DNA from: a virus
Lineage: Duplodnaviria > Heunggongvirae > Uroviricota > Caudoviricetes
Length of the DNA: 54,443 nucleotides
Direction: 5' to 3' (one strand)
Virus record (IMG/VR): IMGVR_UViG_2579778982_000031
Position numbers and translations under genes: made by a program. Position 1 is the stretch's first letter, and each line of letters begins with the position of its first letter. Below, in pieces: positions 35,284 through 54,443 of this stretch. The notes beneath the pieces were generated by a model. The model was not told where the DNA came from and made no database searches. It saw only the letters and a list, made by a program, of their open reading frames with translations.

Positions 35284-35300
35284 TTCAAACATCTCCCCAA

Positions 35301-37258: not shown

Positions 37259-37689
37259 TGGAAAAGAAAAACCGCCCATTACAGGCGGCTAATTCAGATA
37301 TTCGTGTATCTGATGTTACGCCCCTTACAAAATCCCTTCAAGCACCAAAGCGTACACCGAAAAAGCATCGTGCCAGAGTCTATATGCTGCGTACTGGTAT
37401 AGAGGGATGGACAGAAAATGACATTCTTCGCTACTGCCGTCTGTCTTCTGGTCGTAACTATGCAACAGAGTTAGAACGCCAGCTTGGAATCACTCTGGAG
37501 CGTATCGACGAAAAGAATCCTGATGGTATCGGAACACACCTTCGCTACCGTTTCTCCTGCCGTGGTGATGTTCTGAAAGTGATCACTCATATTAACCATC
37601 TTGCGAACATAAATGATCACAACGGACTTTCTCAGCAGGAAATTGCCGACATTCTGAAACTCTACCCGGACGCGTTTAACGCCGCCTAA
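37258..37689 (+). CDS. Hypothetical protein
   Basis: 143-aa ORF, ATGA-coupled to alpA. Confidence 0.4.
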   Translation: MEKKNRPLQAANSDIRVSDVTPLTKSLQAPKRTPKKHRARVYMLRTGIEGWTENDILRYCRLSSGRNYATELERQLGITLERIDEKNPDGIGTHLRYRFSCRGDVLKVITHINHLANINDHNGLSQQEIADILKLYPDAFNAA

Positions 37690-37701
37690 CGGAGACTGAA
37701 A

Positions 37702-38535
37702 ATGAACATCGAAAAAAGCAGATTAATTTCTGAGGCTGCCCCTCATCTGAACGCCTCTCTGGGCACAATTAACGGTAATGAATTTGCCGCAATTGTCCCG
37801 GTTATTCCTGGTCATATCGGTGGGCGTGAAACCAATATTGTTAGCGCAAAAGCGTTACACAAAGCGTTGGGCGTGGGAAAAGACTTCTCTACATGGATCA
37901 CTGATCGCATCTCTGAATATGACTTCACCATTGGGCACGATTACTCAGTCCATAAAACAATTTCCCCAAATTTGGGGAAAAGCCCGAATGGCGCGGCTTA
38001 CAGCAAGATTAAGCAGTCTGGCAGACCCGGCAAAGACTATCTGTTAAGTGTCGGAATGGCGAAAGAACTGGCAATGATCGAACGCAATGATCAGGGTCGC
38101 GCTATCCGTCGTTATTTCATCCAGTGCGAGGAAGAATTACAGCGTAGCGTGCCTGAAATCGCCGCCCGCTATCGTCGCCAGCTAAAAGCCCGTATTAGTG
38201 CCGCAAACAACTTTAAGCCAATGTGCGATGCGCTGAATATGGCCCGTGCCGAGCAGGGGAAAACGACGCAGCAACACCACTACACAAACGAGAGCAATAT
38301 GATTTCTCGTATCGTTCTTGGTGGGCTAACTGCTAAGCAGTGGGCGCGGATAAATGGCTATTCTGGCGAACCTCGCGACCATATGAACGCAGAACAGCTT
38401 GAGCACCTCTCATATCTCGAAAGCACCAATATCACGTTAATTGATATGGGCATGGAATATGAGCAGCGCAAAGGAGAACTCACCCGCCTGTCGCAACGCT
38501 GGCTCGCCAAGCGTCTGGAGGCGGTCCATGTTTAA
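37702..38535 (+). CDS. Phage antirepressor-like protein (AntA/KilAC-like)
   Basis: N-terminal region resembles AntA-type antirepressor domains (NGNEFAAIVPVIPGHIGG...VSAKALHKALGV); assignment tentative. Confidence 0.45.
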   Translation: MNIEKSRLISEAAPHLNASLGTINGNEFAAIVPVIPGHIGGRETNIVSAKALHKALGVGKDFSTWITDRISEYDFTIGHDYSVHKTISPNLGKSPNGAAYSKIKQSGRPGKDYLLSVGMAKELAMIERNDQGRAIRRYFIQCEEELQRSVPEIAARYRRQLKARISAANNFKPMCDALNMARAEQGKTTQQHHYTNESNMISRIVLGGLTAKQWARINGYSGEPRDHMNAEQLEHLSYLESTNITLIDMGMEYEQRKGELTRLSQRWLAKRLEAVHV

Positions 38536-38703
38536 GCCGACAGGAACACCACAACCCCAAAAACGCTACAAAGATGCCCACGGAGCACTCGTTACTGTCG
38601 AAAGCGTGTCTCACAACCGAGTGACGTTTTATCGCGACGGGTATCAATCGCCATGCGTACAACTGCTGGCGCGCTTCATGAAGGAGTTCGCGGAGGTTAA
38701 CAA

Positions 38704-39771
38704 ATGCTAACCGTCCAGAAGAAGATATTTTCACTGGCTGGTATGTCGCCAAAATCCAGCAATATGACAGCAAAGTCTGGCATTAATACAGCATATACAA
38801 GCAAAGTTTATCATTTTCTGGTGGTAGGAGCGGATGCCTTAACTATGTCAGAAATTACGGTCGATGGTGTTAGCGTTGAGAAGGTCGGCGGCTGCGCCAG
38901 AGAATTTCTGGTCGTAGATGGCTTTCTCTGCTCGCGTAGTGACTCCACAAAAACCTTCGTCCACACGCGCGACGTTAACGAAATGAGCGCGATGTATTGT
39001 GCATCTGGTGCTTCCAATAGTGAGTTTTCGGAGTCCATAAAAAAGAGCTTGCCGTTATGCGGCAACACGGTTTATGGTTATAAGGCACCTCATAAAACGG
39101 GTGCCGGGATTGGCGTCCTGAAAATTCTGAAGGCGACATATGACGCGCCGAGCGTCTTTTTTTATGTCGTAGGTCTGACTCACCCATTTTTTGGGCGTTG
39201 GTGTATAATCCAGCGCCTTTGTCAATCAATGGTGGCTCAGGCGGGGGCTTCTTCGGAAGCGCCGGTATCCTTCAGAGCCGGTTACGCCAACCCTGTCTGG
39301 GCTACCACCAGCGAAATTGGCGTTTCCGGTGGTAGCGTAACCTGCTATCTGAAGGAGGCTGCCACATGCTGGCTACTACCCCTACCCAAAAACCGCAATT
39401 TATCTGGATTATCGCCGCAGTTCGCCGCGATTGCCCGACAATTACCGCCAAAATTCATCATATTGCTGCCGAGTCTGAACGCGATGCTCGCCGTTCTCTG
39501 GTGCGCGATCACGTCTGCTTTTTTGCTGGTCGTATCCGCATGGAGGTGGCACATGATTAAAACCTACGATGTGCATATGGATCCCCTCGAACGCACAAGC
39601 CAGATCATCACACTGACAGAAGTGATTAACGACATTCTGGTGAGCAACTCTCCCTCACGAGACGAAAGACTGAAGGCGTTACTCGCGATATTGGATCTCG
39701 CCGTTCGTGACGTTCATTTCCTGCTGGAAGGTGGCGAAATGCCAGGAAAAACGGGGGCAACCAATGAATAA
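38704..39771 (+). CDS. Hypothetical protein; gene structure ambiguous
   Basis: 355-aa ORF whose middle looks non-protein-like; a 64-aa ORF (39366-39560, RBS AGGAGG) in another frame and a 72-aa in-frame C-terminal ORF from 39553 (RBS GGAGGT) may be the real genes. Confidence 0.3.
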
Positions 39772-39958
39772 CTCAATTAATGCCCCTCGACTTACGTCCG
39801 CACTTCAATTAATCGAGCAAGCAGCGGCTGTCCTGGTTGCTGTCAGTCTTTCGGCTGAAGAAATGGACGCTGCTGATGTCGTGGATGCGATTAAAGCGTG
39901 CTCATCTTTGGTTAACGATGCCCGTGCAGAGCTGGTAATTCTTGGGGGTGAAAAATGA
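39764..39958 (+). CDS. Hypothetical small protein
   Basis: 64-aa ORF from an internal ATG; part of a run of coupled small genes. Confidence 0.35.
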   Translation: MNNSINAPRLTSALQLIEQAAAVLVAVSLSAEEMDAADVVDAIKACSSLVNDARAELVILGGEK

Positions 39959-40218
39959 ATATCAACTTAATTTATCGTCATCCGTGTGAGCTGGAAATTG
40001 AATCATTGCTGGGGCGTGAAGAGCCATATCCAGACACATTCACTCCCGCAGATTGCGCGACTGAACGGCTTACCAGAGCGCGCACAGGTCTGGTTCATGT
40101 GATGAATGAGATTATTCCCTCGGTGGGAGGGGAACAGGCGACAGTAATCAATAGCTGGCTACAAAAAGTTACCTCCCTGATAGATATCAGTTTAATCGAT
40201 GTGGAGAGTGCGAAATGA
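39955..40218 (+). CDS. Hypothetical small protein
   Basis: 87-aa ORF, ATGA-coupled. Confidence 0.4.
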   Translation: MNINLIYRHPCELEIESLLGREEPYPDTFTPADCATERLTRARTGLVHVMNEIIPSVGGEQATVINSWLQKVTSLIDISLIDVESAK

Positions 40219-40436
40219 CCAACATCCAGCTCATTGAAGCGCAATGTCGCATCGAACAGGTTCAGACTGTTTTAGGGTTCTGGCTTGAAGGGGCCAGCCC
40301 CAGCAACAGAGACAAGTTAATGATTGGCGCGGTTATGTCACTGCTCAATGGCGTACCAGAAGCTATTCAGGAAGCAGACGAATTGTTGGGCAAATATGAG
40401 TTACAGAATCATTCAGGCGAGGCGAAACATGAATAA
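40215..40436 (+). CDS. Hypothetical small protein
   Basis: 73-aa ORF, ATGA-coupled. Confidence 0.4.
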   Translation: MTNIQLIEAQCRIEQVQTVLGFWLEGASPSNRDKLMIGAVMSLLNGVPEAIQEADELLGKYELQNHSGEAKHE

Positions 40437-41031
40437 TTTCTTAACCTTCCATGCAGAAGCAACGCCTGACGGCGTAAACATCATGTACCGCAGCAACGAT
40501 GGCATGACAGAACGCGTTGAGGCCGTTTCATATATTGATGCCGTAAATCGTCTGGATGCCGGGGATTATGACGATAAACCAGATGAAGGTATGTCAATAC
40601 ATCTTGCTATTGCCGATGGCGGCAACCAGGGATATTTCGATTACACATCACAGCATAACGTCATTATGTGGAGATGGCTGATCGCAACAGTATTCATGCT
40701 GGAAATGAGAGAGGAAAACGGCACTGTCAGCATCATTGATGATACTGGCAATCCTTCCGAAGTGGCTGTTTATTCCAACGGCATCGTCGCCATGCCGCTG
40801 TATCCAGTAGCAGAGCGCCTCGCTATGGCAAACAACATTGAGGGCGCGATGATAGAACGTTTTGGCATCGAGTCTGGCACAGAACGCGCCATCATTTTCT
40901 ACAGAGCCATGATGGATGTGGAACAAGGAGCACTGACTCCATTTGGTCGTGAAACGCTTGCTGAACTTCACAACAGCTTTATAGCTGAACTGAATGAAAA
41001 CGGCATGCCAGCGGAACCAGTGACGCACTGA
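40429..41031 (+). CDS. Hypothetical protein
   Basis: 200 aa from the ATG at 40429, overlapping the previous stop. Confidence 0.45.
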   Translation: MNNFLTFHAEATPDGVNIMYRSNDGMTERVEAVSYIDAVNRLDAGDYDDKPDEGMSIHLAIADGGNQGYFDYTSQHNVIMWRWLIATVFMLEMREENGTVSIIDDTGNPSEVAVYSNGIVAMPLYPVAERLAMANNIEGAMIERFGIESGTERAIIFYRAMMDVEQGALTPFGRETLAELHNSFIAELNENGMPAEPVTH

Positions 41032-41041
41032 GGATGGAGCC

Positions 41042-41383
41042 ATGATTACTAAAAATTTCCGACTGAATGCGCTGGCAAATAAGTATGCGTCGGCACTGTA
41101 TAACCACATTACCTCCACCAGCGGCGGGGACTATTTCATGGTTCATGCGGACGACAAGGCCGTACGTGTGGAAATCGTCAATGGAGTAAAAGGCGTTCGC
41201 AGCCTGATCGATAGCTACACACTGGCTGCCATGAAAGTGTTCTACCCGCAGTGGGAAACCGTGGGGATCGAGCTTCTTGATCGTTGCGTCACTAAGGACG
41301 GATTGACTGACGTCGGGCGTGAGATATGGCAAAGCATGGTTAATGACATGGGCGCAACTGTAGCGGGAGGTTCTCATGCGTGA
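41042..41383 (+). CDS. Hypothetical protein
   Basis: 113-aa ORF in the small-gene operon before the primase. Confidence 0.45.
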   Translation: MITKNFRLNALANKYASALYNHITSTSGGDYFMVHADDKAVRVEIVNGVKGVRSLIDSYTLAAMKVFYPQWETVGIELLDRCVTKDGLTDVGREIWQSMVNDMGATVAGGSHA

Positions 41384-41747
41384 AAATGCAGAAATGGCGC
41401 TTAGCTCCGCAATCGGAGAGCAGGTGGCAAAGATTGCTGGTGCTGTGTGGATTCATAACCTTCATTCTACTGGTGAAGAGAAAATGGCAATTCAGACGCC
41501 AGAGGGACGCACCATTACTACATCTCTGAAGCCGTCAGATGTTTGTGATCTGATTTGCGCATTCATGTACCCAGCAATGAGGACTGTCCACGGCGATAAG
41601 TGGAAACTTGCGACAACCGCTGAATTTGATATGTGGCTAAACAATGATGGCATGCTGACTGATTACGGAATAACCAAGTGGCAGATGCTGGTTAGCCATA
41701 TCGCAAACGCTATAGACCACGTGGGGTACGGTGATGCGAAACATTGA
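41376..41747 (+). CDS. Hypothetical protein
   Basis: 123-aa ORF overlapping the primase start. Confidence 0.45.
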   Translation: MRENAEMALSSAIGEQVAKIAGAVWIHNLHSTGEEKMAIQTPEGRTITTSLKPSDVCDLICAFMYPAMRTVHGDKWKLATTAEFDMWLNNDGMLTDYGITKWQMLVSHIANAIDHVGYGDAKH

Positions 41748-44490
41748 TCTTATCCGTCAGGTTATCAGTGCGTCTGAAAACAACTGGCCTCATGTGCTGG
41801 GCTGCCTGAACATAAATGTCCCTGACTCTCCGCGCCGTCATGCTCCCTGCCCTGCATGTGGGGGCAAAGATCGATTCCGGTTCGATGACAACGGGCGCGG
41901 TAGCTTCATCTGTAATCAGTGCGGCGCTGGTGATGGGCTGGATTTAATTAAACGCGTAAATAACTGCGACACAACAGAGGCGGCGCTTCTTGCCGCTGAT
42001 GTTCTGGGTATTGATTACCGGACAACGGAAACACCAGAAGCCACCAGCCAGAAACGGGAACAACTGGAAACCGAGCGCCAGCGACGCGAACAGGAGCGCC
42101 TGAAAAGGGCAGAGAAGGACGAACAACAAAGACGGGATACGTTTTCCCGTCAGTTTGATGACATGCGCAGAAAGGCTGTAAACGGCAAATCTGATTATCT
42201 GGTTGCGAAAGGGGTAGGTGATTTTACATTCCCCGTGTTGCCCGATGGATCTCTGTTGCTGGCGCTGGTGGATAAATCCGGCGCAGTCACAGCAGCACAG
42301 ACTATTACCTCACATGGTGAAAAAAGACTCCTGACAGGTTCAGCAAAGCGGGGGGCATATCACGCCATAAACGCACCAGAAACAACACAGAGCATCTTAA
42401 TCGCAGAAGGGCTGGCAACGGCATTATCTGCCCATTTAATTCGTCCAGAGGCGCTGACAGTGGCGGCGATTGATGCCGGGAACCTGTTATATGTCGCCCA
42501 GGTACTGCGGGATAAATATCCATCAGCACAAATCATCATTGCTGCGGATAACGACCACAGCGAAGGAAGACAAAACACGGGGAGAATAGCAGCAGAAAAA
42601 GCAGCTTTATCTGTTTCTGGATGGGTGGCATTACCCCCGACAGATCACAAAGCAGACTGGAATGATTACCACCAAAAACACGGCATTAAATGCGCCACAG
42701 AAGCGTTCAATAAGTCAATGTACCAACCACAGGGTAATGGCGTGAAACAGGAGCCACAGACCATTGAGGGAAGCGATTTTAAGGTTATGGATACCGACCC
42801 ACTGAAACCAAGAATAGAAAGCCGCGAGGATGGTATTTATTGGGTATCTCCGAGAGCTGACAGCCAGAGTGGAGAAATCATCAATAACGAAAGCTGGTTA
42901 TGTTCTCCGTTAAGCGTTATCGGTACTGGCAGAGACGATAAAGACCAGTATCTCATTCTTCGCTGGCTGTCGTTTGGTTCTGAAACGCCGACAACCGCTG
43001 CCATTCCACTGGCTGATATTGGTGAACGTGAAGGATGGCGCACACTTAAAGCTGGTGGGGTAAATGTCACGACCAAAAGCAGCCTCAGAGCAATACTGGC
43101 AGACTGGCTACAACGCAGTGGCTCTCGTGAATTGTGGCGTGTTGCTCATGCCACTGGCTGGCAATGCGGAGCGTACATCATGCCTGATGGGGAAATCATC
43201 GGAACACCTGAAAATCCTGTGCTGTTCAGCGGGAGAAGCTCAGCCGCAGCCGGATATACCGTCTCAGGGAGCGCGAAAAGCTGGCGTGATAACGTGGCGC
43301 GTCTGGCCTTTGGTAACTATTCAATGATGACCGGGATCGGCGCAGCACTGGCAGCGCCATTGATTGGGCTGGTGGGCGCTGACGGGTTCGGCATTCATTT
43401 CTATGAGCAGTCGAGCGCAGGTAAGACCACCACGGCAAACGTGGCGAGCAGCTTATACGGCAACCCTGATTTACTGCGGCTGACGTGGTACGGAACCGCG
43501 CTGGGGCTGGCAAATGAAGCCGCCGCCCACAATGACGGACTAATGCCGCTTGATGAAGTTGGTCAGGGCGCTGATCCTGTCAGTGTTTCACAGTCTGCCT
43601 ATGCGTTATTTAACGGTGTAGGGAAACTGCAAGGCGCTAAAGATGGTGGAAACCGGGATCTAAAACGCTGGCGTACAGTGGCAATCAGCACTGGAGAAAT
43701 GGATTTAGAAACATTTATCGCTACTTCCGGGCGAAAAACCAAAGCCGGGCAACTGGTGCGACTGCTGAATATTCCGTTGAGTAAAGCAGTACGCTTTCAC
43801 GATTACCAGAACGGAAAACAGCACGCAGACGCACTGAAAGACGCTTACCAGCATCACCACGGCGCAGCCGGGCGTGAGTGGATTAAATGGCTGGCAGACC
43901 ACCAGCAACAGGCAATTAAAACTGTTCGTGACTGCGAAAGCAGATGGAGAAGTCTGATCCCATCCGATTATGGTGAGCAGGTTCACCGTGTAGCCGCGCG
44001 ATTTGCCATTCTGGAGGCCGCATTGCTGTTAGGCGAGGTTGTAACAGGCTGGGATGCTCAGACATGCCGTGATGCGATACAGCACAGCTATAACGCATGG
44101 TTGCGCGAGTTCGGCACAGGTAACAAAGAACATCAGCAGATTATTGAACAAACGGAGGCATTTCTTAATGCCTATGGGCTTAGCCGTTTTGCACCATTTC
44201 CATACAGCCCGGCAGATTTGCCCATCAAAGATTTGGCCGGATACCGTCAGCGTGGAGAACATGACGAAAGCCCAATGATTTTCTACACATTCCCGGCCAC
44301 ATTTGAAAAGGAGATCGCATGTGGTTTCAACGCAAAACAGTTTGCTGAAGTGTTGAAAAAAGCCGGGATGCTAACCCCACCAAACAGCGGTCGTGGATAC
44401 CAAAGAAAATCACCACGTATTCAGGGACGACAAATAAACGTTTATGTACTCAATTACCAGCCAGGAGATTATAACTCATCTGAAGAATGA
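41734..44490 (+). CDS. Primase-helicase (P4 alpha-like; zinc ribbon + TOPRIM + P-loop NTPase)
   Basis: Zinc ribbon CPACGG...CNQCG; TOPRIM-like ILIAEGLATA and AADNDH; Walker A GIHFYEQSSAGKTTTAN; followed directly by an iteron array. Confidence 0.8.
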   Translation: MRNIDLIRQVISASENNWPHVLGCLNINVPDSPRRHAPCPACGGKDRFRFDDNGRGSFICNQCGAGDGLDLIKRVNNCDTTEAALLAADVLGIDYRTTETPEATSQKREQLETERQRREQERLKRAEKDEQQRRDTFSRQFDDMRRKAVNGKSDYLVAKGVGDFTFPVLPDGSLLLALVDKSGAVTAAQTITSHGEKRLLTGSAKRGAYHAINAPETTQSILIAEGLATALSAHLIRPEALTVAAIDAGNLLYVAQVLRDKYPSAQIIIAADNDHSEGRQNTGRIAAEKAALSVSGWVALPPTDHKADWNDYHQKHGIKCATEAFNKSMYQPQGNGVKQEPQTIEGSDFKVMDTDPLKPRIESREDGIYWVSPRADSQSGEIINNESWLCSPLSVIGTGRDDKDQYLILRWLSFGSETPTTAAIPLADIGEREGWRTLKAGGVNVTTKSSLRAILADWLQRSGSRELWRVAHATGWQCGAYIMPDGEIIGTPENPVLFSGRSSAAAGYTVSGSAKSWRDNVARLAFGNYSMMTGIGAALAAPLIGLVGADGFGIHFYEQSSAGKTTTANVASSLYGNPDLLRLTWYGTALGLANEAAAHNDGLMPLDEVGQGADPVSVSQSAYALFNGVGKLQGAKDGGNRDLKRWRTVAISTGEMDLETFIATSGRKTKAGQLVRLLNIPLSKAVRFHDYQNGKQHADALKDAYQHHHGAAGREWIKWLADHQQQAIKTVRDCESRWRSLIPSDYGEQVHRVAARFAILEAALLLGEVVTGWDAQTCRDAIQHSYNAWLREFGTGNKEHQQIIEQTEAFLNAYGLSRFAPFPYSPADLPIKDLAGYRQRGEHDESPMIFYTFPATFEKEIACGFNAKQFAEVLKKAGMLTPPNSGRGYQRKSPRIQGRQINVYVLNYQPGDYNSSEE

Positions 44491-44513
44491 GCTTCTTCAT
44501 GTGCGTAGAAAAG

Positions 44514-44640
44514 GTGTTGGTTCAGTTGGTTCAGTTGGTTCAGTTGGTTCAATTTGTAAAGAGTATTGTTTTATAAGGATTTTATTCTTTTTATTGAACC
44601 AACACTGAACCAACAACACGGTATTTTGAACCAACACAAT
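44514..44640. repeat. Iteron array, candidate replication origin of the satellite-like element
   Basis: Four tandem GTTGGTTCA, an AT-rich spacer, then three inverted TGAACCAAC copies; immediately downstream of the primase-helicase. Confidence 0.6.
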
Positions 44641-44955
44641 GTGACTGAATTGATGCGCACAACACCTGGCTGGCATCAGAGAGTGTTTTACGAGACTTTC
44701 GTAAAATCCTGTGTACAAGGGCGTGACGTTTTTGAAAGTGAGCACTACGAAATTTTCGTAGTTCAAAAAACAGCCTCTGAGAAGTTGTTATGCCTGTTCA
44801 GCAAACCATCCGCATAGCTGATCGCGAATCAAATTACCAATGGAGCCAGAAGCAAGGGCAGAACTGAAAAGTGCCTGCCGTGAAGAGTAATGCGACACCA
44901 TAAATATAGTTTTTAGAGTCCATAAAAAACCAGTCAAAACCTGACACACAGAACG

Positions 44956-44988
44956 ATGCCACCAGCTACTGAGCGGTGGCATTTTTTT
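44956..44988 (+). terminator. Rho-independent terminator
   Basis: 8-bp stem ATGCCACC/GGTGGCAT with ~10-nt loop followed by TTTTTTT. Confidence 0.5.
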
Positions 44989-45083
44989 GTGCTATTTGTT
45001 TCATATTTTGCAATTACGATGATGAATATTGCGATTTATGAAACTATAATAACTGTTGTTTTATACAGTTCTAAGGGGGCGTT

Positions 45084-45245
45084 ATGGCTATTTCAGTAAA
45101 GCCGGTATTGATAAGTGAGAAGCAAATGGAAGCGATAAAGAAAATTCAGGAAGAGCAGCGTAAAAAATCAGGAATTGGAGTAGCGCCAACTCTGCATGAA
45201 ATTGCTCGAGGGTTAATAGATAAGGCGCTGGCAGGCTGTATGTGA
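45084..45245 (+). CDS. Small putative DNA-binding protein
   Basis: 53-aa ORF not in the supplied track; AAGGGGG RBS 5 nt before the ATG; lysine-rich helical composition. Speculative. Confidence 0.3.
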   Translation: MAISVKPVLISEKQMEAIKKIQEEQRKKSGIGVAPTLHEIARGLIDKALAGCM

Positions 45246-45261
45246 AAATGGATGGCATCGC

Positions 45262-45723
45262 ATGGAACTAAAATTTATTGATAACCCTGTGCGATTACAG
45301 GCCTTTCTTAACGATCCTGGCAATACCGAAAATATTGTTGAGCCGGGGCACACGTACTACATCAAGCCTGATGCGGTATATCTCGGCATCTACGAAGGAT
45401 TGGTGCTGGCTGGCGTTCATGAAGTGCGTAACTTCTGGCATAGCGTTGTTGAATGCCATGCGGTGTATGACCCCGGATTCCGTGGTGAATATGCACTGCA
45501 AGGGCATCGACTATTCTGCAAATGGCTTCTCGAAAACTCACCATTCCTTAACAGCATCACTATGGTTCCTGACACCACGAAATACGGACGGGCAATTATC
45601 CGTTTGCTTGGCGCTACCCGTGTTGGTCACCTTGATGATGCTTATATCAGATGTGGTAAACCCGTCGGCGTAACGCTTTATCAGTTAACTCGGCAACAAT
45701 ATAAGGAATTCAGCGAATGTTAA
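45262..45723 (+). CDS. Hypothetical protein (first gene of cargo cassette)
   Basis: 153 aa, start overlapped by the next gene; no motif recognised. Confidence 0.45.
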   Translation: MELKFIDNPVRLQAFLNDPGNTENIVEPGHTYYIKPDAVYLGIYEGLVLAGVHEVRNFWHSVVECHAVYDPGFRGEYALQGHRLFCKWLLENSPFLNSITMVPDTTKYGRAIIRLLGATRVGHLDDAYIRCGKPVGVTLYQLTRQQYKEFSEC

Positions 45724-46394
45724 TTACCCATATAGCTCATAAACATCTCAATCGTGCCGTATACGAAAAAGGCGGTGATGGTGGTGCCTCTAAAGCTCAG
45801 GCGAAGGCCCAGCAGCAGGCAATTGATTTGCAGCGCGAGCAGTGGAATACGGTGATGAATAATCTCAAGCCGTATGCAGAAGTCGGATTGCCTGCTTTAC
45901 AACAACTACAAGGACTGATGACTCTGGAAGGGCAGAATAAAGCCGCGAATGATTTCTTTGGTTCTGGTTTATATAAAACACAGGCAGATCAGGCCCGTTA
46001 TCAGAACCTTGTCTCAGCAGAAGCTACCGGGGGGCTTGGCTCAACAGCTACCAGTAACCAGTTATCTTCCATTGCGCCCATGCTTTATAACAATTGGCTT
46101 AGTGGGCAAATGCAAAATTATGGAAACCTGCTAAATGTCGGGATGAATGCGGCATCAGGGCAGGCAACGGCAGGGCAAAACTACGCCAATAATACCGGAC
46201 AACTCTTGCAGGGGCTTGGCGCTATTCGTGCAGGTCAGGCGCAGCAGCCATCCAGTCTTGCGCGTGGTATTGGTGGGGCAGCATCAGGCGCTTTAGCGGG
46301 TGCGCAACTTGGTTCCGTTGTTCCTGGAATAGGTACTGCGGCAGGCGCTATTGGTGGTGGGCTTATTGGTCTTGTTGGGGGGCTTGGATTCTAA
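45717..46394 (+). CDS. Hypothetical Gly/Ala/Gln-rich protein with hydrophobic glycine-zipper C-terminus
   Basis: 225 aa; C-terminal GIGTAAGAIGGGLIGLVGGLGF; coupled to flanking genes. Confidence 0.45.
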   Translation: MLITHIAHKHLNRAVYEKGGDGGASKAQAKAQQQAIDLQREQWNTVMNNLKPYAEVGLPALQQLQGLMTLEGQNKAANDFFGSGLYKTQADQARYQNLVSAEATGGLGSTATSNQLSSIAPMLYNNWLSGQMQNYGNLLNVGMNAASGQATAGQNYANNTGQLLQGLGAIRAGQAQQPSSLARGIGGAASGALAGAQLGSVVPGIGTAAGAIGGGLIGLVGGLGF

Positions 46395-47713
46395 TGGCGA
46401 CATGGCAACTTGGCGGGCTGCCTAGCATGGCACCGCAAAATGATAATGCTCCTCGTTCTTCCGTTCCTCAGCCTGTGCAGTATCAGCAGCAGCCAAACGT
46501 AGGTTTAATGGCGCTACAGGGGCTAAGAGGCGTTGCTGAGATTAATCAGCAGGCGCAAATTTCCCAGCAGCTAAAAGAATATCAGGCACAGTTGGGTAGT
46601 GCGGTAGCTAATAATGATCGTGTTGGCGTGCAGAAGTTAATGGCCCAGTATCCCCAGTTTATGGCTGATTCTCAAAAACAGATGGGATTCATTGATGCTG
46701 AGCAAAATCGGCAGACCGCTGACGCTGCCATGAATCTGCGTCTTGCGTCACAAACTGGAGATCCACTGACCATGCAGAAGGCCATTCAGCAGGCAAATCC
46801 AGTATTACAGCGATTTGGTCTTCCTGCTGAAGAGGTTTATCAGTCTTGGCAGAATGACCCACAGGAATTCAACAGAATCACTGACCTCATCCACCTCCAT
46901 GCTGATCCAAATAGTTACTTTAGTGTTCAAGAGAAGCAGCAAGGGCAGAGTATTGCACAGCAGAACGCAGATACATCTGCATATAATGCTCAGGTTAATG
47001 CGGAACAGGGTAATCGGCGTCTCGATATGGAGCAGTTCAAAGTCCTATCCGATAACCAGCTACGCACGAGAGAAATGGTTCTGAAAGCACGACTTGGACG
47101 TGCTCAAAATGACATCGAGAGAGACAAGCTCAATGCTGAACTGAGCAAGGTACAGCAGGCGAAAGTGGAGAAGATGAACGATAAAATTAATACTGTTGCA
47201 GGTAACATCGACTCCTTGAACTCTGCGCTTGAAGTGGGTCATGAACTGGCGGGAATTGTAGGGAAACATCCTTCGGCCGTTACCCGTTCGCAGAACTATA
47301 ACCCCCTGACGCTGGGGTTTGGATTCCTTCCTGATGTAGCAGAAGACACACGAAGCCTACGCGCCAAAGCTGATGAATACAACCTAAAGGTTATTCTGCC
47401 TAGCCTCAAAGGGACTTTTGGCTCTAACCCAACCGAAGGGGAAAGGGCTGCCCTTATGCAATCTCAAAATGGCATTAAGTCAGCAACCAGCAATGAGGCA
47501 TTTTTGCGAGAGTTGAATAAAGCGCAGGACGTAATTATTCGAATGCAGAAACGACAGATTGCCGGGCTCGGTATTCCTGTAACCAAATCTAAGGACGAAG
47601 AAACTGATACTAAAATGCTGTTGCAGGATCCTTCTCTGGTTAAGGATTATGTGACCGCACATGGCTATCTGCCGGAAAGTTACTATCAGGCAAAACTTAA
47701 GGGATGGCAATGA
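46394..47713 (+). CDS. Hypothetical Gln-rich coiled-coil protein
   Basis: 439 aa, strongly helical and Gln/Ala-rich; ATG overlaps the previous stop. Confidence 0.45.
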   Translation: MATWQLGGLPSMAPQNDNAPRSSVPQPVQYQQQPNVGLMALQGLRGVAEINQQAQISQQLKEYQAQLGSAVANNDRVGVQKLMAQYPQFMADSQKQMGFIDAEQNRQTADAAMNLRLASQTGDPLTMQKAIQQANPVLQRFGLPAEEVYQSWQNDPQEFNRITDLIHLHADPNSYFSVQEKQQGQSIAQQNADTSAYNAQVNAEQGNRRLDMEQFKVLSDNQLRTREMVLKARLGRAQNDIERDKLNAELSKVQQAKVEKMNDKINTVAGNIDSLNSALEVGHELAGIVGKHPSAVTRSQNYNPLTLGFGFLPDVAEDTRSLRAKADEYNLKVILPSLKGTFGSNPTEGERAALMQSQNGIKSATSNEAFLRELNKAQDVIIRMQKRQIAGLGIPVTKSKDEETDTKMLLQDPSLVKDYVTAHGYLPESYYQAKLKGWQ

Positions 47714-50430
47714 TGGCACAACTGACAGAAAAACAGAAAGCCTATTCCCGTCATCTCGATGAAAAATATGGTTTCCCATCAGGGACGATGGAAACATTAG
47801 TTGGCAATGAATCTAGTGGTAACGGAAGTGCCGAGTCACCGAAAGGAGCTAGAGGATTTGCTCAACTGATGCCCTCAGTAATGAGTGATGCTGGTTATCG
47901 TGGAACAGATCCGCGCTCACTGCCATTTGAAAAGCAAATGGATATCGCAGCAAACCATCTCAATAAAGGAATGAAGCGATTTGGTGATATAGGTATGGCA
48001 TTGGCTGGGTATAATTCTGGCTATGCTCGTATTAATGCCGTAAGAAACGGTAAATCTACACTGCCAGATGAAACGGCTAATTACGTAAGTAAATTTGCAG
48101 ATGCCGGAATAATCCCTGATGACAGTGAAATCTTGCAGTTTGCACAAACCAGTCAACATCGCAATCTTCAGCAGCCTGACTACTCAGAGCTTGATAAAGA
48201 AATCTCTCAGGTGGGAGATATTTCTGCATGGGAAGCAAAACGTCAGCAATTTAAGAACATAGAAGCAGGACTACCAACAGCCAGTTCATGGGAGCAGAAA
48301 AGAGCTCATTTTCTCGCCGATGAAAATGCCGGGGAACCGCAGCAGCAAGTAGCCAAGTCTAACCTTAATCCTGAGATGGAATATCTTTCGCCAGGACTGA
48401 AAGCTGCGCCAGAGCAGATGGCCAGAGGGATTGCTAATATACCGTTTGATGTAATGGACGCAGGCGTGGGGGTAGTCAATGCGGCGCAATCAGCCGGAGC
48501 ATGGGCAGCTCAGAAGCTTGGTGTGGGTGATGGTACATACACGCCCATATCACCTGTCTTTCGCCCAGTAGACCAACCTACAGATCCATACGCGCAGGCT
48601 GGTGAGCAGCTAGCACCTTACCTTATTACAGGATTAGGTGCAGGAAAGGCAGCTACCGCAGCTTCTTCAGTTGCCAACGCTCCACGTGCTGAACGTGCGG
48701 CCACAAAGGTGGCTAGTATGTTGGCAGAAAACCTGCCAGGTACATTGGTGAACGCCCAAAAGAACGGGCAGATCAGCCCAGAAGACCTAGCAAAAGAGAC
48801 AGGTATTGGCCTAGCAGGATCGCTAGGAGCACGCGCTTTAATAAAGAGCGGACAGACAGCCAGTGACGTAATGCGAGATGTATTGCGGAGTAATACAAAT
48901 CAATCAAGCTATGTGTTAGGGGCAGCAAATACTCTGGAAACCGCCAATGATGTATCGAAAGCAGCGCGTTCTGCCGTAGGCCGAGAGCATATCGCATCGC
49001 AGGCATCAAACGTCAGAGATGATGTCGCTAAGGCGGCGAAAATCACTGGTATTAATATCAACACCCTGACGCCTGGAATGCGCTCAGGTAGTCGTGGAAT
49101 TGCCCAAGCAGAAGGTGTTCTGGCATCAACTCCTGGGAATGTTCAGGATGCTCACCTTACGGCCTTCAATGAAATATCCTCAAAGTTGAATAAGCAGTTG
49201 TCTGATTTCGGTGCTGAGTCTGGAAGCGCATCAGAAAAAAGCGCAGCAATTAAAGAGCGCATTATCGCGAGCCTCAGTGATATGAAAACAGCAGAGAATA
49301 TGGCATGGGCAGAACTGCGAAGCACGATGCCACGCGAAAGGATGAAAATGAGTAATGGGATGGCTGTCGTCCAAGCAGAAAAAGCAGCCAATGTTCCACT
49401 CAGCCCGGAGATGAAACAGTTTCAGGCTGCCAATAACCAAGGTGGCGGCATAACCTTCGACGGGATGAAGGCATGGCGTGCTAAGTTTGCTGATGCTGAA
49501 CAAGCAAACACCCGGGCAGGTAAGGCCAATGCCGCCCGGGTTGCCGGAGAAATGCGCAGAGCTATCACTGATGACATGCGCATCATGGCTGAAAAAGGAA
49601 ACTTCCTCACAGAATGGCAGAAAGCTAACGATCTCTCTAAAAGTTACATTATCGCCAAACAAAATGCCGAATCTGTTTTTGGTCGAGATCTCGCATCAGA
49701 CGCTATGGTAAGAAAAGGTGCCGATACGCTTAAGGCATCCGCAAACACTGGAACGGGAGCTTTTCACCGTCTTATCTCCGCGCTGCCGGAAGCAGAACGC
49801 CAACCAGCAATAGCATCTATTCTTCAGCATGCTGTGGCGCAGGGAGAGAAGGGAGGAATCGGTGAAGAGTCTGGTATCCAGTATTTTGCCAAGCTCATGA
49901 CCCAGCAGAATGTAAACGCCATCAGTCGTCATGCGCCAGATCTCGGTAGAATGATGAAAGAGTTCGGTGTACTCGCTAAAGCCAGCACCAGACCGCAGCG
50001 ATACGTAGAGCGCACGGGAAGAACAACTGAGGCTCTCAAAACGCTCGATTCAGGCCTTCCAAAGATCGTCGGCGTGATTATGAACGGAGTTCAACAGTCA
50101 GGTGCGATCGCTGGAGGCTTTGGCGGTGGTGTAATTGGTTCGATTAGTGGTTTGGTTGCTGGTGGCGCGCTGAGAAATACTGTGGCTAAGATTGGGGCGA
50201 CAAGAAGTGGTCGATATGCGATAGAGAAAGCCGTTCAGGAAGCTACAAAAGCAGTGCGCGCAGGGGCATCACCAGCAGCGATCGCCGCAGCAGAGAAACG
50301 ATTTTCGGCCAATAAAATTGCCATGAAAGCAATTCGTGATGCCGTTGGGGCTGAAGAATTCGTGAAACTGACAAGGGCCGGGATTGTAGCTACCCTCAGT
50401 GGCATGAAAGATGTTAGCGAATGGGAATAG
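47704..50430 (+). CDS. Large protein with N-terminal soluble lytic transglycosylase (SLT) domain
   Basis: SLT motifs ESSGNGSAESPKGARGFAQLMP and AGYNSGYARIN in the first ~130 aa; the remaining ~780 aa are Ala-rich helical with a Gly-rich hydrophobic patch near the C-terminus. Confidence 0.6.
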   Translation: MAMMAQLTEKQKAYSRHLDEKYGFPSGTMETLVGNESSGNGSAESPKGARGFAQLMPSVMSDAGYRGTDPRSLPFEKQMDIAANHLNKGMKRFGDIGMALAGYNSGYARINAVRNGKSTLPDETANYVSKFADAGIIPDDSEILQFAQTSQHRNLQQPDYSELDKEISQVGDISAWEAKRQQFKNIEAGLPTASSWEQKRAHFLADENAGEPQQQVAKSNLNPEMEYLSPGLKAAPEQMARGIANIPFDVMDAGVGVVNAAQSAGAWAAQKLGVGDGTYTPISPVFRPVDQPTDPYAQAGEQLAPYLITGLGAGKAATAASSVANAPRAERAATKVASMLAENLPGTLVNAQKNGQISPEDLAKETGIGLAGSLGARALIKSGQTASDVMRDVLRSNTNQSSYVLGAANTLETANDVSKAARSAVGREHIASQASNVRDDVAKAAKITGININTLTPGMRSGSRGIAQAEGVLASTPGNVQDAHLTAFNEISSKLNKQLSDFGAESGSASEKSAAIKERIIASLSDMKTAENMAWAELRSTMPRERMKMSNGMAVVQAEKAANVPLSPEMKQFQAANNQGGGITFDGMKAWRAKFADAEQANTRAGKANAARVAGEMRRAITDDMRIMAEKGNFLTEWQKANDLSKSYIIAKQNAESVFGRDLASDAMVRKGADTLKASANTGTGAFHRLISALPEAERQPAIASILQHAVAQGEKGGIGEESGIQYFAKLMTQQNVNAISRHAPDLGRMMKEFGVLAKASTRPQRYVERTGRTTEALKTLDSGLPKIVGVIMNGVQQSGAIAGGFGGGVIGSISGLVAGGALRNTVAKIGATRSGRYAIEKAVQEATKAVRAGASPAAIAAAEKRFSANKIAMKAIRDAVGAEEFVKLTRAGIVATLSGMKDVSEWE

Positions 50431-50580
50431 ACGCTCTAACTAACAAAACCATAATAGCCAAGGACGGCATACTGATATTGAGCCAACTATCAAAATTCCA
50501 TATCACATTACGAGCCTGTGGCTTACATTCGCTTACAGTGATGATAATTTATAACCACGCAATTCTTAGGTGAGATTATC

Positions 50581-51279
50581 ATGATTAAAAATCTTCTTTT
50601 AATATTATCCCTGTCATTATTGGCTGGATGCGTACAAAAACCGTTAGTAACGGTCAATGCTTTATCTTCCGGGCAATCTGTCGGTAAGAAGTTCTTGATC
50701 ATCCCCGCAAGCCAAGAACTTTGGAACACCAAACAGATTGAATACACTCAAATAGCTACGGTAGTAGCCGCCAGTTTATCAAGCCAAGGATATACACAAG
50801 TTAAAGATGAAAAATTGGCTGACCAGGTAATTCTCTTGAACTTTTTGAGAAGCGGGGCCATTTCAAATACTCGTAATGTAACCATCCCAATATACGGGCA
50901 AACTGGTGTGAGCTCAGCAACAACGTACGGAAACTCGAACACCACGTTCAATAGTTATGGTGGTGGCTACGGTACAGCTAATACCACTGGAACGGCAACA
51001 ACAGTTTATACGCCTACTTATGGAATTACTGGCGCGTATAACACAACTGTGACGGACACGTTCTACGGCGCAGGGGTGATACTCCAGTCGTTTGATGCCA
51101 AGGCCTATCTCAATAATAGGCAGATTAATATGTTATGGAAAGTTGGTAGCTCAGTCGTCTCGCAACAGTCTGATGGAATTGCTGATTACAAGGGGTTGGC
51201 GAGAATAGCCGCTAGCTATGCCGGGAAAAATACAGAAGGTGATATAACTTTTAATGTTGACCCTAAAGCACCAAATTAA
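50581..51279 (+). CDS. Lipoprotein, Thr/Gly/Tyr-rich
   Basis: Signal peptide with lipobox LLAGC; low GC; central Thr/Gly/Tyr-rich repeats. Confidence 0.6.
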   Translation: MIKNLLLILSLSLLAGCVQKPLVTVNALSSGQSVGKKFLIIPASQELWNTKQIEYTQIATVVAASLSSQGYTQVKDEKLADQVILLNFLRSGAISNTRNVTIPIYGQTGVSSATTYGNSNTTFNSYGGGYGTANTTGTATTVYTPTYGITGAYNTTVTDTFYGAGVILQSFDAKAYLNNRQINMLWKVGSSVVSQQSDGIADYKGLARIAASYAGKNTEGDITFNVDPKAPN

Positions 51280-52138
51280 CTAATAAGCCCGGTACGCCGG
51301 GCATTTTGCCCCCTATTATTCATGAATCGCTTTTTCTAGAAGGTATGCGACAAACGTTAAGTGACATTGCCTACACATTCGGGGCGGGATTTCAAATCCG
51401 CTCCCAGTTGATGGGGCCGTTACAGTACGCGCATATCCGCTTTATGTGAAACAGGAAGATTTTTCTGATATCACTGCCACAGCAAAACACCAATTTCGAG
51501 ACAAGTACGCGCGCGAGGGGTATCAGTTGCAAAAAATTTTGCAACTACGTCCGACCAATACACACACGATGGCGGGGGATACCATAAAACTGTTCTCTAC
51601 ATGAGACAGAGTGGTGGTGATGTGTTGATTATCGGCCTATATGCGCACAGGACGCGCTATGACAATGTTTTATGCGGGTACACCAATCACATGTATCTGG
51701 TGTGATAAATCGCGTTACATGACCTCTCATGTTGTGCTGGTGGTTATCACGACGTTCTGAATCTGGCTTTTGTCTGATATTTTGCGACAAGTACGCGCGC
51801 GTAACATCGAAATTATCGGATGGCGTATGTTGCTGGCAAGATAAAGTCGGCGTAATACAAAGGCGTTACTTGATAGCAGCAAGATTACAACAATGGTTGT
51901 TGAATTTGAGCGATGTAAGGAATTGATTTAGGGAGGCGCTGATGGCTAAAAAGTTCCACTACCAGCGGATGAATGCGCCAGCGATGGCCGTTTGGTAGTA
52001 AAAGAGGAGCCATTCCTCAATCAGTTGAATACATTATGCCAACTAAATGGGTGGGGGCACTGTGTGGGTATTCAGCGGTGACGGTATTTTTTAAGCCAAG
52101 GACTATCCGTAGCAGGGGGACTCATTTTGAAATATTTA

Positions 52139-52576
52139 TCATATGTAACTTATTATTTTAGATAAAGATTTCCAGTTAAAGAAAAAAGTTATCATTGATA
52201 TAATCAAATATGCCCCTGCGAGTAGCAGGGCATAATAATCCAGAGGCAGATTGCTGACAACAGGGGCAAACATCGAGATCATTGCTAATAGGCAGGCTGT
52301 GATCAGCGTAGTTCCTGTATCAAAAAGCCCCTCAATAATGCCTTTTAGTACTCCGTTACTTTTTAGAGCGCCTACAATTCCCTTTGAACTATCAAAGCTA
52401 CTTAGCATGGTGACTGATGCCAAAACAAAACCAAAGAGAACTCCAGAAATAGTTGAAAGAGCACCAGCAGCCGAAATGACAGCATTGTGATCTAGGTCGT
52501 GTAAAAAATGGGCACCAGCAATAGCCATAGCTAGAGCAAACAATGACTTGGCAGCAAACAATTTCCGAGAACTCAT
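52139..52576 (-). CDS. Small four-TM membrane protein (RexB-like architecture)
   Basis: 145 aa with four hydrophobic helices; 12 bp downstream of the 361-aa gene on the same strand. Confidence 0.5.
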   Translation of the reverse strand: MSSRKLFAAKSLFALAMAIAGAHFLHDLDHNAVISAAGALSTISGVLFGFVLASVTMLSSFDSSKGIVGALKSNGVLKGIIEGLFDTGTTLITACLLAMISMFAPVVSNLPLDYYALLLAGAYLIISMITFFFNWKSLSKIISYI

Positions 52577-52588
52577 AATGTATTCCTG

Positions 52589-53674
52589 TTACGTTTGACT
52601 AACCAAATAGTACTGGGTTAGATACCTAAGGTTGTCATTCTTTGCTTGTAGCATAGCATTTTTAACGTCAGTATCGGTCGGGTACCCATCTGCTTGGATA
52701 GGCACCATCTTCTTTACCGTAAGAACTTCGTCTACAAGACTTTTCTTCTTTTTATCGCCCTGAGCAACAACATTTGCTTTCTCAAAAGTTAAACGACCAT
52801 CACCACCAGGGAACTTTTCTAGCATCTCCTTAAGGCTTTTTTTAACGTCATCCTCAAGCCATCCCTTTGCTTTTCTTTTTAATGGAGCATGTCCGCGTAA
52901 CGAAATAGTCAGGTGGCTTGAACTGGTGCCTCTGATCATCTCAATCATCTGATTCGCGAACATTCCATCGAGTTGATACTGTGCGGCATTGAAGTTTCTT
53001 GGGATGGCCACAGAAATCTCGCAGCTTCTTAGATTGGATCCAGTTTCGAGTAGTTCTTTGATGCTTTCTTCTTTCCAAATGGCTTCAAAAGAAACAGGGA
53101 CTCCGCGATCACTGGAGTTGAAAAGAAGGAAGGCTAAGTCACTATGGCGTGGACCTAAATGATTTAAAGACAATACTAGAATGTCTGTCTGAGGATAATA
53201 AATAAAGTATGTACGTTCTGAAAGAGTCTTTGCCCCGGCTAGAGGGATTTTCTCTTCCACCCACTCTTTATCTGTAATATATGCCAGTGTTGCGCTTTTT
53301 CTTCTTCGAGACATGAATCCGAAGTAGGAGCCATCCTCGGGTGAGATGTCTAGAAAATGAATTTTAAGTTCTCTTTCACCAAAGTCTGCATAGTGGGTCA
53401 TCTTGAAGTCTTTAGAACACCGATCATAGAGATTTTTAAAGGCCTCTGCGGTTAACCCCTTGTTACTAGTGCGAATATTCTCAGAGCTTGTGTAAAAGCC
53501 CACCCTTACAGATTTCAAACTTTGATCTTTTGGTGCCACAGTCATTTGAGCTCCATTGTACTCTGCGATAGTTTTTGCACACCTTGAAATCAAAATCTCC
53601 ATGTCAGTCACGAGAAAATAACTATGGATGAAACCCATCAAAGGCATTGAATACAGGTGGCTTTTGAGAATCAT
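52589..53674 (-). CDS. Hypothetical cytoplasmic protein (RexA-like position)
   Basis: 361 aa, AT-rich codon usage, no TM segment, no motif recognised; first gene of a two-gene reverse-strand operon. Confidence 0.5.
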   Translation of the reverse strand: MILKSHLYSMPLMGFIHSYFLVTDMEILISRCAKTIAEYNGAQMTVAPKDQSLKSVRVGFYTSSENIRTSNKGLTAEAFKNLYDRCSKDFKMTHYADFGERELKIHFLDISPEDGSYFGFMSRRRKSATLAYITDKEWVEEKIPLAGAKTLSERTYFIYYPQTDILVLSLNHLGPRHSDLAFLLFNSSDRGVPVSFEAIWKEESIKELLETGSNLRSCEISVAIPRNFNAAQYQLDGMFANQMIEMIRGTSSSHLTISLRGHAPLKRKAKGWLEDDVKKSLKEMLEKFPGGDGRLTFEKANVVAQGDKKKKSLVDEVLTVKKMVPIQADGYPTDTDVKNAMLQAKNDNLRYLTQYYLVSQT

Positions 53675-54019
53675 CCTAACCTGGTGACGGTGGTTCGCAT
53701 ATCCTGATGGATGATCAGTGATTAATCAATGCGCCAAGCAGATGTGTCTATGTGTTTGTTAATCATTGCATGACAGTAGATCGACATGGGAGATCACGTT
53801 ATATAGTTGAATTGTTAGGATATCCATGCACCGATCAACTGACTAGGCTGATGTGCTTTTTAGCAGGTGCCATATAGTAGTTAGGCGGTTCTGTGAAATG
53901 ATTACTGTTCCAGCATAACTGCGGCATAAAGCGGTGCTATATAAGCTATTTGCTGGCGGATTTAGTCTTCACCGTTCATATATGTAGTGACTATTTGACA
54001 GAGTGTTAGTTCACGGACA

Positions 54020-54130
54020 CTTTTTGTTGGTTCAAAATGAGTTGATGTTGGTTCAATATTTTAGAAAAAACACAATAAAAACAACGCTCTTTACAAATTG
54101 AACCAACTGAACCAACTGAACCAACACCTT
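54020..54130. repeat. Inverted second copy of the iteron/ori module
   Basis: Reverse complement of the 44514-44640 module with one fewer repeat per arm; shared flanks GCAAAAAGGTGTTGG and CAATTTGTAAAGAG. Confidence 0.55.
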
Positions 54131-54161
54131 TTTGCTTATCTATATAATCTGAGAGGCAGAA

Positions 54162-54443
54162 ATGATAAGGGACAGGAAAGCTGAAGAGCTGGAGTCAAAA
54201 GGGCTATACCGGAGAGCTGCCGCACGATGGATGGAAGTCATGCTGTTATGCAGCGAGGACGATGATCGGGAATGGATAAAGCGCCGCCGTGAAACGTGTC
54301 TGGAGAACGTGAAGCGCCCGCCCGTGAAGGTTGAGGAATTTGGCGACCTGCATAAAGCTGTTACCGAAACGCAACACCGCATGGGGATAGCGCAACCGAA
54401 CGGTAACGCCTTCCGGTTAAATGGCGGCAAGAGGCAAAGGTAG
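54162..54443 (+). CDS. PerC/ANR-family regulator-like protein
   Basis: AEELESKGLYRRAAARWMEVM motif, paralogous to the gene at 1132-1620; ends in TAG at the window edge. Confidence 0.55.
   Translation: MIRDRKAEELESKGLYRRAAARWMEVMLLCSEDDDREWIKRRRETCLENVKRPPVKVEEFGDLHKAVTETQHRMGIAQPNGNAFRLNGGKRQR

Follow-up and report, generated by a model that had tools for sequence, protein, structure and literature searches.

The locus studied here raises the question of what a lipoprotein gene does on a phage satellite of Escherichia coli, directly behind a set of genes for P22-type ejection proteins. The window, by which we mean the whole stretch of DNA analysed (54,443 nucleotides, IMG/VR record IMGVR_UViG_2579778982_000031), is from E. 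coli and contains an element of about 20 kb at the tRNA-Thr gene thrW beside proBA; the lipoprotein gene lies on this element at positions 50581..51279 of the plus strand. A phage-inducible chromosomal island (PICI) named EcCIMP1, of 19,963 bp, was described in tRNA-Thr between proA and yagU (Pick, Stadel and Raivio 2025, PMC11773190). Its excision and its transfer take place only with a P22-like helper phage, Kapi1, and the island is associated with superinfection immunity against this helper by a mechanism left unexplained; PADLOC and DefenseFinder found no known defence system (PMC11773190). We propose the lipoprotein as a candidate for this immunity. The reading that we tentatively prefer, at a probability of roughly 0.4, is that the protein forms an outer-membrane ring by means of long hairpins and excludes superinfecting P22-like phage at the level of the envelope.

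The island in the window is a copy of EcCIMP1, as insertion site, gene set and the lipoprotein itself all agree. The copy of EcCIMP1 in E. coli MP1 encodes WP_000594596.1, as annotated in a second copy of the island (L001; such labels denote the loci that were compared), and the L001 protein is 100% identical to the window protein. The genes of the window island are those for an integrase, a helix-turn-helix (HTH) protein, AntA/B, Ash, a TOPRIM-DUF927 primase, gp14 (DUF2824), gp7, gp20, SLT-gp16, the lipoprotein, a variable segment and PerC. At the left junction the 3' 46 nt of tRNA-Thr (35238-35283) are followed by int. No coat, portal, terminase or tail genes were found in the island (35238-54443), so that a complete P22-like prophage was ruled out as the context, and the full P22-type ejection set that remains indicates a satellite with its own ejection proteins. 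The island gp16 gave no tblastn match to helper Kapi1 at E ≤ 1e-10, and only four coding sequences of EcCIMP1 resemble those of Kapi1 (PMC11773190).

The lipoprotein gene is real and is under purifying selection. The called open reading frame (ORF) starts with ATG and codes for 232 aa including the signal peptide, the product being identical to WP_000594596.1. A Shine-Dalgarno sequence, AGGTGAG, can be read 6 nt 5' of the ATG (50568..50574, plus strand), and the orthologues in L010 and L005 have a conserved (G/A)GTGAGAT block on their upstream side. Compared with an orthologue of 88% identity, the ratio of non-synonymous to synonymous substitution rates (dN/dS) is 0.035, and the dN of the lipoprotein is lower than that of the adjacent ejection genes. 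Identical (100%) or near-identical copies of the gene are present in 76 of 5,426 complete E. coli genomes.

Lipoproteins were defined by an n-region, a hydrophobic h-region and a lipobox of the form [LVI][ASTVI][GAS]C. The N-terminus of the protein, MIKNLLLILSLSLLAG followed by CVQK after the cleavage site, has precisely this arrangement, with Lys in the n-region, a Leu-rich h-region and the lipobox LLAG-C17, so that the type II signal peptide (50581..50631, plus strand) ends in L-A-G-C17 with Val at +2 and the mature protein has 216 aa. The lipobox Cys is kept in 117 of 121 family members, LSGC and LAGC being the commonest lipoboxes. Among these 117 relatives the +2 residue is Ala in 88, Val in 11, Ser in 6 and Gly in 6, and never Asp. 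According to the Lol rule of E. coli, a +2 residue other than Asp predicts release to the outer membrane. The window lipoprotein is accordingly predicted, by this rule only, to be an outer-membrane protein.

To describe the fold, an AlphaFold2 (AF2) model was calculated from a 121-sequence alignment. It shows an alpha/beta domain with a projecting two-stranded hairpin (predicted local distance difference test score, pLDDT, 87.3; predicted template modelling score, pTM, 0.70), the strands of which comprise residues 82-124 and 132-172, and it contains no transmembrane helix past the signal peptide. The same architecture was obtained for a chromosomal member from Maridesulfovibrio that is 30% identical (pLDDT 90.2). 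Insertions and deletions within the family come in matched pairs, with one partner in each strand next to the turn (positions 122-125 and 129-133), which, together with the clade-specific length of the segment, is what a true hairpin predicts. The turn would then fall at G128-G129, and the register i+j=257 would place G106 opposite G151 and G109 opposite G148. Thus, the protein can be modelled as an alpha/beta core of the LptE/PelC/TraT type carrying a conserved uncharged beta-hairpin of about 25 residues per strand, with the motifs GQTGVSS and PTYGITG at the base of the hairpin.

The projecting part of the hairpin, as judged by composition and the AF2 strands, is a Thr/Gly/Tyr-rich uncharged segment of residues 99-159 (50875..51057, plus strand). 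Thr, Gly and Tyr make up 57% of this segment compared to 16% of the remainder of the lipoprotein, and the uncharged run extends over 60 residues, after R98 up to D159. In the 121-sequence alignment this is also the most conserved part of the protein. On the ascending strand, at the base of the hairpin, lies motif 1, P103-x-x-G-Q-T-G-V-S-S-x-x-T-x-G117 (50887..50931, plus strand), and correspondingly on the descending strand motif 2, T-T-x-Y-x-P-T-Y-G-I-T-G151 (50998..51033, plus strand). Ten positions are invariant, namely P103, G106, T108, G109, T115, T141, P145, Y147, G148 and G151, and at least 90% conservation is seen at Q107, V110, S111, S112, G117, G127, Y143, T146, I149 and T150. The stretch P103-G151 is uncharged in 80 of the 121 members (median of 0 charged residues), whereas 17.7% of all residues carry a charge. 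In distant pairs, the dN of the hairpin is 3-4 times lower than that of the remainder of the lipoprotein. The first-pass annotation, made from the letters of the window, had described a lipoprotein with a clean lipobox and a Thr/Gly/Tyr-rich central region. Both descriptions were correct, but the centre is a conserved structured element and not a compositional curiosity; a low-complexity or disordered linker was ruled out, as this region is the most conserved and a confidently structured part of the protein.

Searches with the structure placed the core among known lipoproteins. The top Foldseek match was BT2437 (PDB 4F54; E 5e-4), and TraT was matched with a probability of 0.94. The hairpin alone draws the pore stems of aerolysin, anthrax protective antigen (PA), CDTb and lysenin at template modelling (TM) scores of 0.09-0.14. 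A pore-forming toxin was ruled out, because only the hairpin matches and the TM score does not exceed 0.14. An hhalign comparison with the TraT alignment gave a probability of 89% (E 2e-6), which covers the N-terminal 79 columns only, signal peptide included. In the BFVD viral fold library there was no match at E ≤ 0.001, the best TM scores being 0.13-0.22, and the sequences of solved structures, searched with the protein alone as well as with the family profile, yielded chance-level matches only, for example to transthyretin.

The lipoprotein is a member of a large, uncharacterised and mostly chromosomal family related to DUF4136. Close relatives (38-90% identity) occur in Enterobacterales, and relatives of 25-35% identity, many of them tagged PF13590/DUF4136, in many diderm phyla; in an exhaustive profile search 4,108 cluster representatives passed a cut-off of E ≤ 1e-3, and 860 one of E ≤ 1e-30. 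A DUF4136 match at E ≤ 0.01 is found in 96 of the 121 aligned members. The window protein itself stays below the membership thresholds of Pfam, scoring 14.2 bits with DUF4136 (PF13590; cut-off 32.8, E 0.062) and 12.9 bits with TraT (PF05818; threshold 31, E 0.09), and its relationship to DUF4136 runs through intermediates and the common fold. NCBIfam, PADLOC and PHROGs (E ≤ 0.01) gave no match to the lipoprotein, in the case of PADLOC not even at E ≤ 1. The family match spans about 33 residues beyond the DUF4136 profile. BT2437, a DUF4136 lipoprotein of Bacteroides thetaiotaomicron, has only 173-184 residues, which makes the GQTGVSS...PTYGITG hairpin a subfamily-specific elaboration. In the phage-borne clade the hairpin segment is 49 aa long versus a family median of 40, thus 9 residues longer. 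No functional study was found in the literature on DUF4136 and WP_000594596, nor did the literature searched contain a description of the lipoprotein, its family, its fold or its possible role, the island itself being already published.

As the distant members are ordinary chromosomal genes, typically single, the gene could be a hitch-hiking housekeeping envelope lipoprotein that keeps a native DUF4136-type role, such as binding of anionic glycans or formation of an outer-membrane ring, without any role specific to the element. The breadth of the family across many diderm phyla speaks for this, as does the fact that the core fold is common to proteins that bind anionic oligosaccharides (PMC12658005). 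We nevertheless consider it improbable. A dN/dS of 0.035 in the mobile lineage, a position kept in at least two phage lineages and in the satellite, and a hairpin that is 9 residues longer altogether indicate that the gene has been retained for a function.

Among the relatives by fold, TraT offers the closest parallel to the exclusion proposed here. TraT is a surface-exclusion and serum-resistance lipoprotein of F-like plasmids, for which the cryo-electron microscopy structures 9E2V, 9FS5 and 9FSM exist. With the window lipoprotein it would share, according to the model, the LptE-like alpha/beta core. In TraT, this core bears two helices inserted into the membrane and, further along the chain, a beta-hairpin that links ten subunits into an outer-membrane ring (PMC12658005, PMC11733297). 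Where TraT has two amphipathic, Gly/Ala-rich transmembrane helices, the model of the window protein shows no helices but its beta-hairpin (82-124 and 132-172), which would leave the core after the third strand; the own hairpin of TraT (residues 180-205) is shorter than that of the window lipoprotein and comes later in the chain. PelC, CsgG and LptE are further ring- or plug-forming outer-membrane lipoproteins with the same core fold. The window hairpin is far longer than theirs and Thr/Gly/Tyr-rich, and no pel, csg or lpt partner genes neighbour the lipoprotein gene.

A possible mechanism can be outlined from these parallels. The lipoprotein would assemble as a ring in the outer membrane, as PelC, CsgG and TraT do, with the hairpins as an inter-subunit or membrane-embedded element. 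Such a ring would make it harder for superinfecting P22-like phage to enter, either at the outer membrane or immediately beneath it, in a mode resembling the surface exclusion by TraT and unlike the receptor plugging of Cor and Llp. A factor of the helper phage would perhaps be needed for the expression or the action of the lipoprotein.

The genomic position of the gene also speaks for exclusion. The P22-type ejection module of the window (45262..50430, plus strand, from Pfam and PHROGs) consists of a DUF2824/gp14-like gene (45262-45723), a gp7-like gene (45717-46394), a gp20-like gene (46394-47713) and a gp16-like gene of 908 aa with an N-terminal SLT domain (47704-50430), all on the plus strand, the last one being the upstream neighbour of the lipoprotein gene across a spacer of 150 bp. 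In P22, this slot is occupied by sieA, which has its own promoter, and then immI. The superinfection-exclusion protein SieA acts on the gp20/gp16 conduit and so prevents the delivery of DNA; only 22 of 66 P22-like phages have it (PMC10883804). The two genes share the slot, which lies directly 3' of gene 16 and ahead of the tailspike region, and the conduit that SieA targets is the machinery encoded beside the lipoprotein gene. In other respects they differ: SieA resides in the inner membrane, whereas the window protein is a predicted outer-membrane lipoprotein encoded on the same strand as the ejection genes. Neither PHROGs nor Pfam revealed homology of the lipoprotein to SieA, so that they have only the genomic slot in common.

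The slot is filled differently in other phages. In Epsilon34 it holds hkcB-like genes and immI, and in Kapi1 (L073 32628-33170) two small reverse-strand genes annotated as signal-peptide proteins, again with immI. Just after gp16, E. coli sister islands have reverse-strand hypothetical genes of 204 aa (L069 6241-6855) and 146 aa (L070 6284-6724). The small reverse-strand genes after gp16 in Kapi1, L069 and L070 may be further envelope or exclusion factors in the sieA slot.

Homologues of the lipoprotein recur in similar positions. In complete P22-like prophages, namely that of Serratia ureilytica (L002, 64% identity) and those on the metagenome contigs L005/L006, the SLT-gp16 gene comes directly before the homologue and the Head_binding tailspike gene directly after it, and the order of ejection genes followed by the lipoprotein is the same in the window, L002 and L005. 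A second prophage type is podovirus-like (Serratia nevei, L003/L004; IMG/VR L013-15 and L017); here the homologue has three large internal-virion-type proteins before it and a tailspike after it, and in L003 its start overlaps the stop of the upstream 921-aa gene. A myovirus tail cluster (L011) also contains a homologue, as a moron. In Kosakonia pseudosacchari (L022 9806-10702; also L023) a lone copy of 63-65% identity stands directly after frsA-crl-phoE-proB-proA, that is, at the thrW locus. Ejection genes or an island were not found around the lipoprotein copy at this L022/L023 locus, and the copy looks as if it had been kept after the element itself was lost. Megablast and tblastn searches of 50,697 sequenced phages found no homologue. 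Altogether, temperate podoviruses have captured one branch of an old family, which accompanies the genes for their ejection proteins.

The first-pass annotation had taken the protein for a candidate exclusion factor of the Cor/Llp type, which would plug an outer-membrane phage receptor such as FhuA. Exclusion as a general idea is plausible, given the predicted outer-membrane location, the sieA slot, the TraT-like core and the identity with EcCIMP1, but the analogy to Cor and Llp does not hold. Cor (phi80, N15, HK022) and Llp (T5) are, like the window protein, phage-encoded lipoproteins near host-recognition genes, and the resemblance of a mobile-element lipoprotein beside entry genes ends there. 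No likeness to Cor or Llp was seen with Pfam, which gave only the sub-threshold DUF4136 and TraT scores, with PHROGs (0 families at E ≤ 0.01) or in the BFVD fold search, which returned no similar viral structure; having no PHROG match, the protein matches none of the Cor, Llp or exclusion families in PHROGs. Cor and Llp are also several times smaller than the 216-aa mature window protein, and they belong to FhuA-dependent siphoviruses, whereas the window protein is linked to O-antigen-binding podoviruses. Membership in the Cor/Llp family is thus supported neither by sequence nor by the model, and as a mechanism we regard receptor plugging of this kind as very improbable.

Several observations weigh against the proposed outer-membrane ring and its role in exclusion. 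Oligomerisation and the placement of the hairpins are read from a model of the monomer only. The mechanism of TraT is itself unresolved (PMC12658005). The core fold serves LptE in lipopolysaccharide transport, PelC in polysaccharide export and CsgG in curli secretion, so that the fold alone is no sign of exclusion, and with most members in ordinary chromosomal neighbourhoods of many phyla, the native function of the family would be unrelated to phage. The published phenotype was mapped only to the whole 20-kb island, which carries many other hypothetical genes. Neither EcCIMP1 nor Kapi1 alone gave full protection, and EcCIMP1 alone left Kapi1 infection of non-lysogens unchanged (PMC11773190), which argues against a simple constitutive outer-membrane receptor blocker of Kapi1. 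In the case of Dewey the slot is empty, and both Dewey and Huey have the SLT-gp16 fusion with no homologue of the lipoprotein, the tailspike gene coming directly next. E. coli sister islands with a shorter gp16 type (701 aa) have no lipoprotein, and instead other genes such as Abi. Finally, the sites found by a sigma-70 promoter scan upstream of the lipoprotein gene were not above those in shuffled sequence; as the gene is also co-oriented with the late/ejection genes, expression from the resting element is at most putative. In the upstream region that is conserved in both the window and L010, inspection by eye showed no convincing -35/-10 pair either.

Some of these points could also be understood if the lipoprotein were an accessory of the lytic cycle made together with the ejection proteins, either as an Llp-like shield that keeps progeny from ejection on debris or on cells that are infected already, or as a partner or inhibitor in the periplasm that restrains the SLT (lytic transglycosylase) domain of gp16-type proteins. 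The orientation shared with the late/ejection genes, the tight linkage up to the start/stop overlap in L003, and the absence of a promoter above chance fit such a role, as does the co-occurrence with SLT-gp16 in the E. coli islands and in L002/L005, set against the 701-aa gp16 sister islands without lipoprotein. Dewey and Huey, however, have SLT-gp16 without a homologue, so that the lipoprotein is not required for it, and this weakens the idea of an obligate partner or inhibitor of the SLT domain. The chromosomal relatives have no SLT partner, none of the 50,697 sequenced phages carries a homologue, and the copies in the myovirus tail cluster and alone in Kosakonia are likewise difficult to reconcile with a lytic accessory, which we consider a rather unlikely explanation. 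A spanin, also considered, was ruled out by its size and by its location outside the lysis cassette, a separate holin/lysozyme cluster being present in L003.

A different kind of benefit, unrelated to phage exclusion, could be provided to the host, in the sense of a lysogenic-conversion or fitness factor that changes the envelope and confers resistance to serum/complement or phagocytosis, or robustness of the outer membrane. Envelope and serum effects of this type are reported for TraT and for Bor/Iss of lambda. The TraT-like core fold is compatible with this, and the lone survival of the gene at thrW in Kosakonia suggests a host benefit independent of the element. Moreover, the E. coli carriers of the gene include commensal and pathogenic strains from humans, cattle and poultry. 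On the other hand, deletion of EcCIMP1 left growth unaffected in laboratory and gut-mimicking media, and its fitness benefit was tied to Kapi1 lysogeny (PMC11773190). That the gene recurs beside ejection and tailspike genes in two lineages of podoviruses also fits an entry-related role better than a role in host fitness, which we therefore regard as possible yet doubtful.

The envelope-level exclusion that we favour can be taken one step further, to a version that is distinctly more speculative and that we consider unlikely as it stands: the lipoprotein could be the founding phage-borne beta-hairpin counterpart of TraT, a lipid-anchored outer-membrane ring with its conserved uncharged hairpins as membrane or periplasmic element, encoded by P22-like phages and EcCIMP1 in the sieA slot, that stops the conduit of gp7, gp20 and gp16 of a superinfecting podovirus at its outer-membrane side.

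Regarding the surroundings of the gene, the stretch that runs from the integrase past the lipoprotein gene to position 51810 has 99.5% identity in the window and the second island copy L001, which differ only at 51810-54025. The lipoprotein is thus part of the conserved backbone and not variable cargo, as had been assumed at first, because the identity continues for about 530 bp downstream before the hotspot begins. The low GC content that had been noted for the gene is real (42.6%) and modest in comparison with the gp16-like (49.4%), gp20-like (47.7%) and gp7-like (50.4%) genes upstream and with the island as a whole (47.3%). Eight nt past the stop lies a hairpin, GCCCGG-TACG-CCGGGC followed by ATTTTG (51287..51308, plus strand; stem reported by a scan), which is at most terminator-like because its T-run is short. 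Upstream of the lipoprotein gene, a block is conserved between the window (50470-50560) and L010 (9860-9940), and in it a short direct repeat can be seen, which reads GCTTACA-TTC-GCTTACA in the window and is represented by TTACA-type repeats in L010. This block may be a binding site for a regulator.

The variable cargo hotspot (51810..54025), defined by the break and the return of identity with L001, contains in the window two genes on the minus strand, encoding a hydrophobic protein of 145 aa (52139-52576), by eye apparently a multi-pass membrane protein, and a protein of 361 aa (52589-53674). The lipoprotein gene had been placed between the SLT cassette and a RexAB-like pair. Its position between the SLT gp16-type gene and this reverse-strand pair is right, but the name RexAB finds no support in homology, as the pair has no match in PADLOC (E ≤ 1), Pfam or NCBIfam and corresponds to phrog_8552 and phrog_7651, both of unknown function. 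The architecture of the pair does recall RexB/RexA. In other copies the hotspot holds two small ORFs, an Abi-family gene, an HTH gene or ImmA/IrrE; MP1 EcCIMP1 has a single 53-aa HTH gene between lipoprotein and PerC. Islands of the EcCIMP1 type were also seen in L072, besides L001.

Two arrays of the 9-mer GTTGGTTCA (at least 4 copies) flank the block of ejection genes, lipoprotein and cargo in inverted orientation, at 44509-44643 and 53998-54132, with arms of up to 48 nt that are 96% complementary. They may represent a P4-style ori/crr pair of iterons by the primase gene, or shared sites for divergent transcription.

The remainder of the window (1-35237) is a myovirus-type prophage in tandem ahead of the island, with genes for TerL (11506), portal (13433), capsid (15317), sheath (18706), tape measure (20969) and baseplate J (26229), a tail collar gene (29523, minus strand) and a DNA methylase (6899). 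As the window contains no complete tRNA and only the 3' 46 nt of tRNA-Thr, thrW appears to serve both elements. The right end of the prophage, immediately ahead of the att repeat, encodes on the minus strand (32122-34875) a protein of 917 aa with ATPase signatures of the AAA_21/AAA_23/SMC_N type, which is possibly a defence ATPase.

In conclusion, the analysis provides a concrete and cheaply testable gene candidate for the unexplained immunity of EcCIMP1, and it draws attention to a large and phylogenetically broad lipoprotein subfamily with an unusually conserved long beta-hairpin. Should the lipoprotein prove irrelevant to exclusion, it would be an ordinary conserved moron. If instead it acts as a ring against the ejection conduit, it would be the first block of podovirus ejection proteins at the level of the outer membrane, it would explain the superinfection immunity of EcCIMP1, and it would give a functional handle on about 4,000 clusters of DUF4136-type lipoproteins. 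As an exclusion factor, it would carry the story of TraT beyond plasmids: phages and their satellites, too, would have recruited an envelope lipoprotein of the chromosome for exclusion, with another element facing the membrane.

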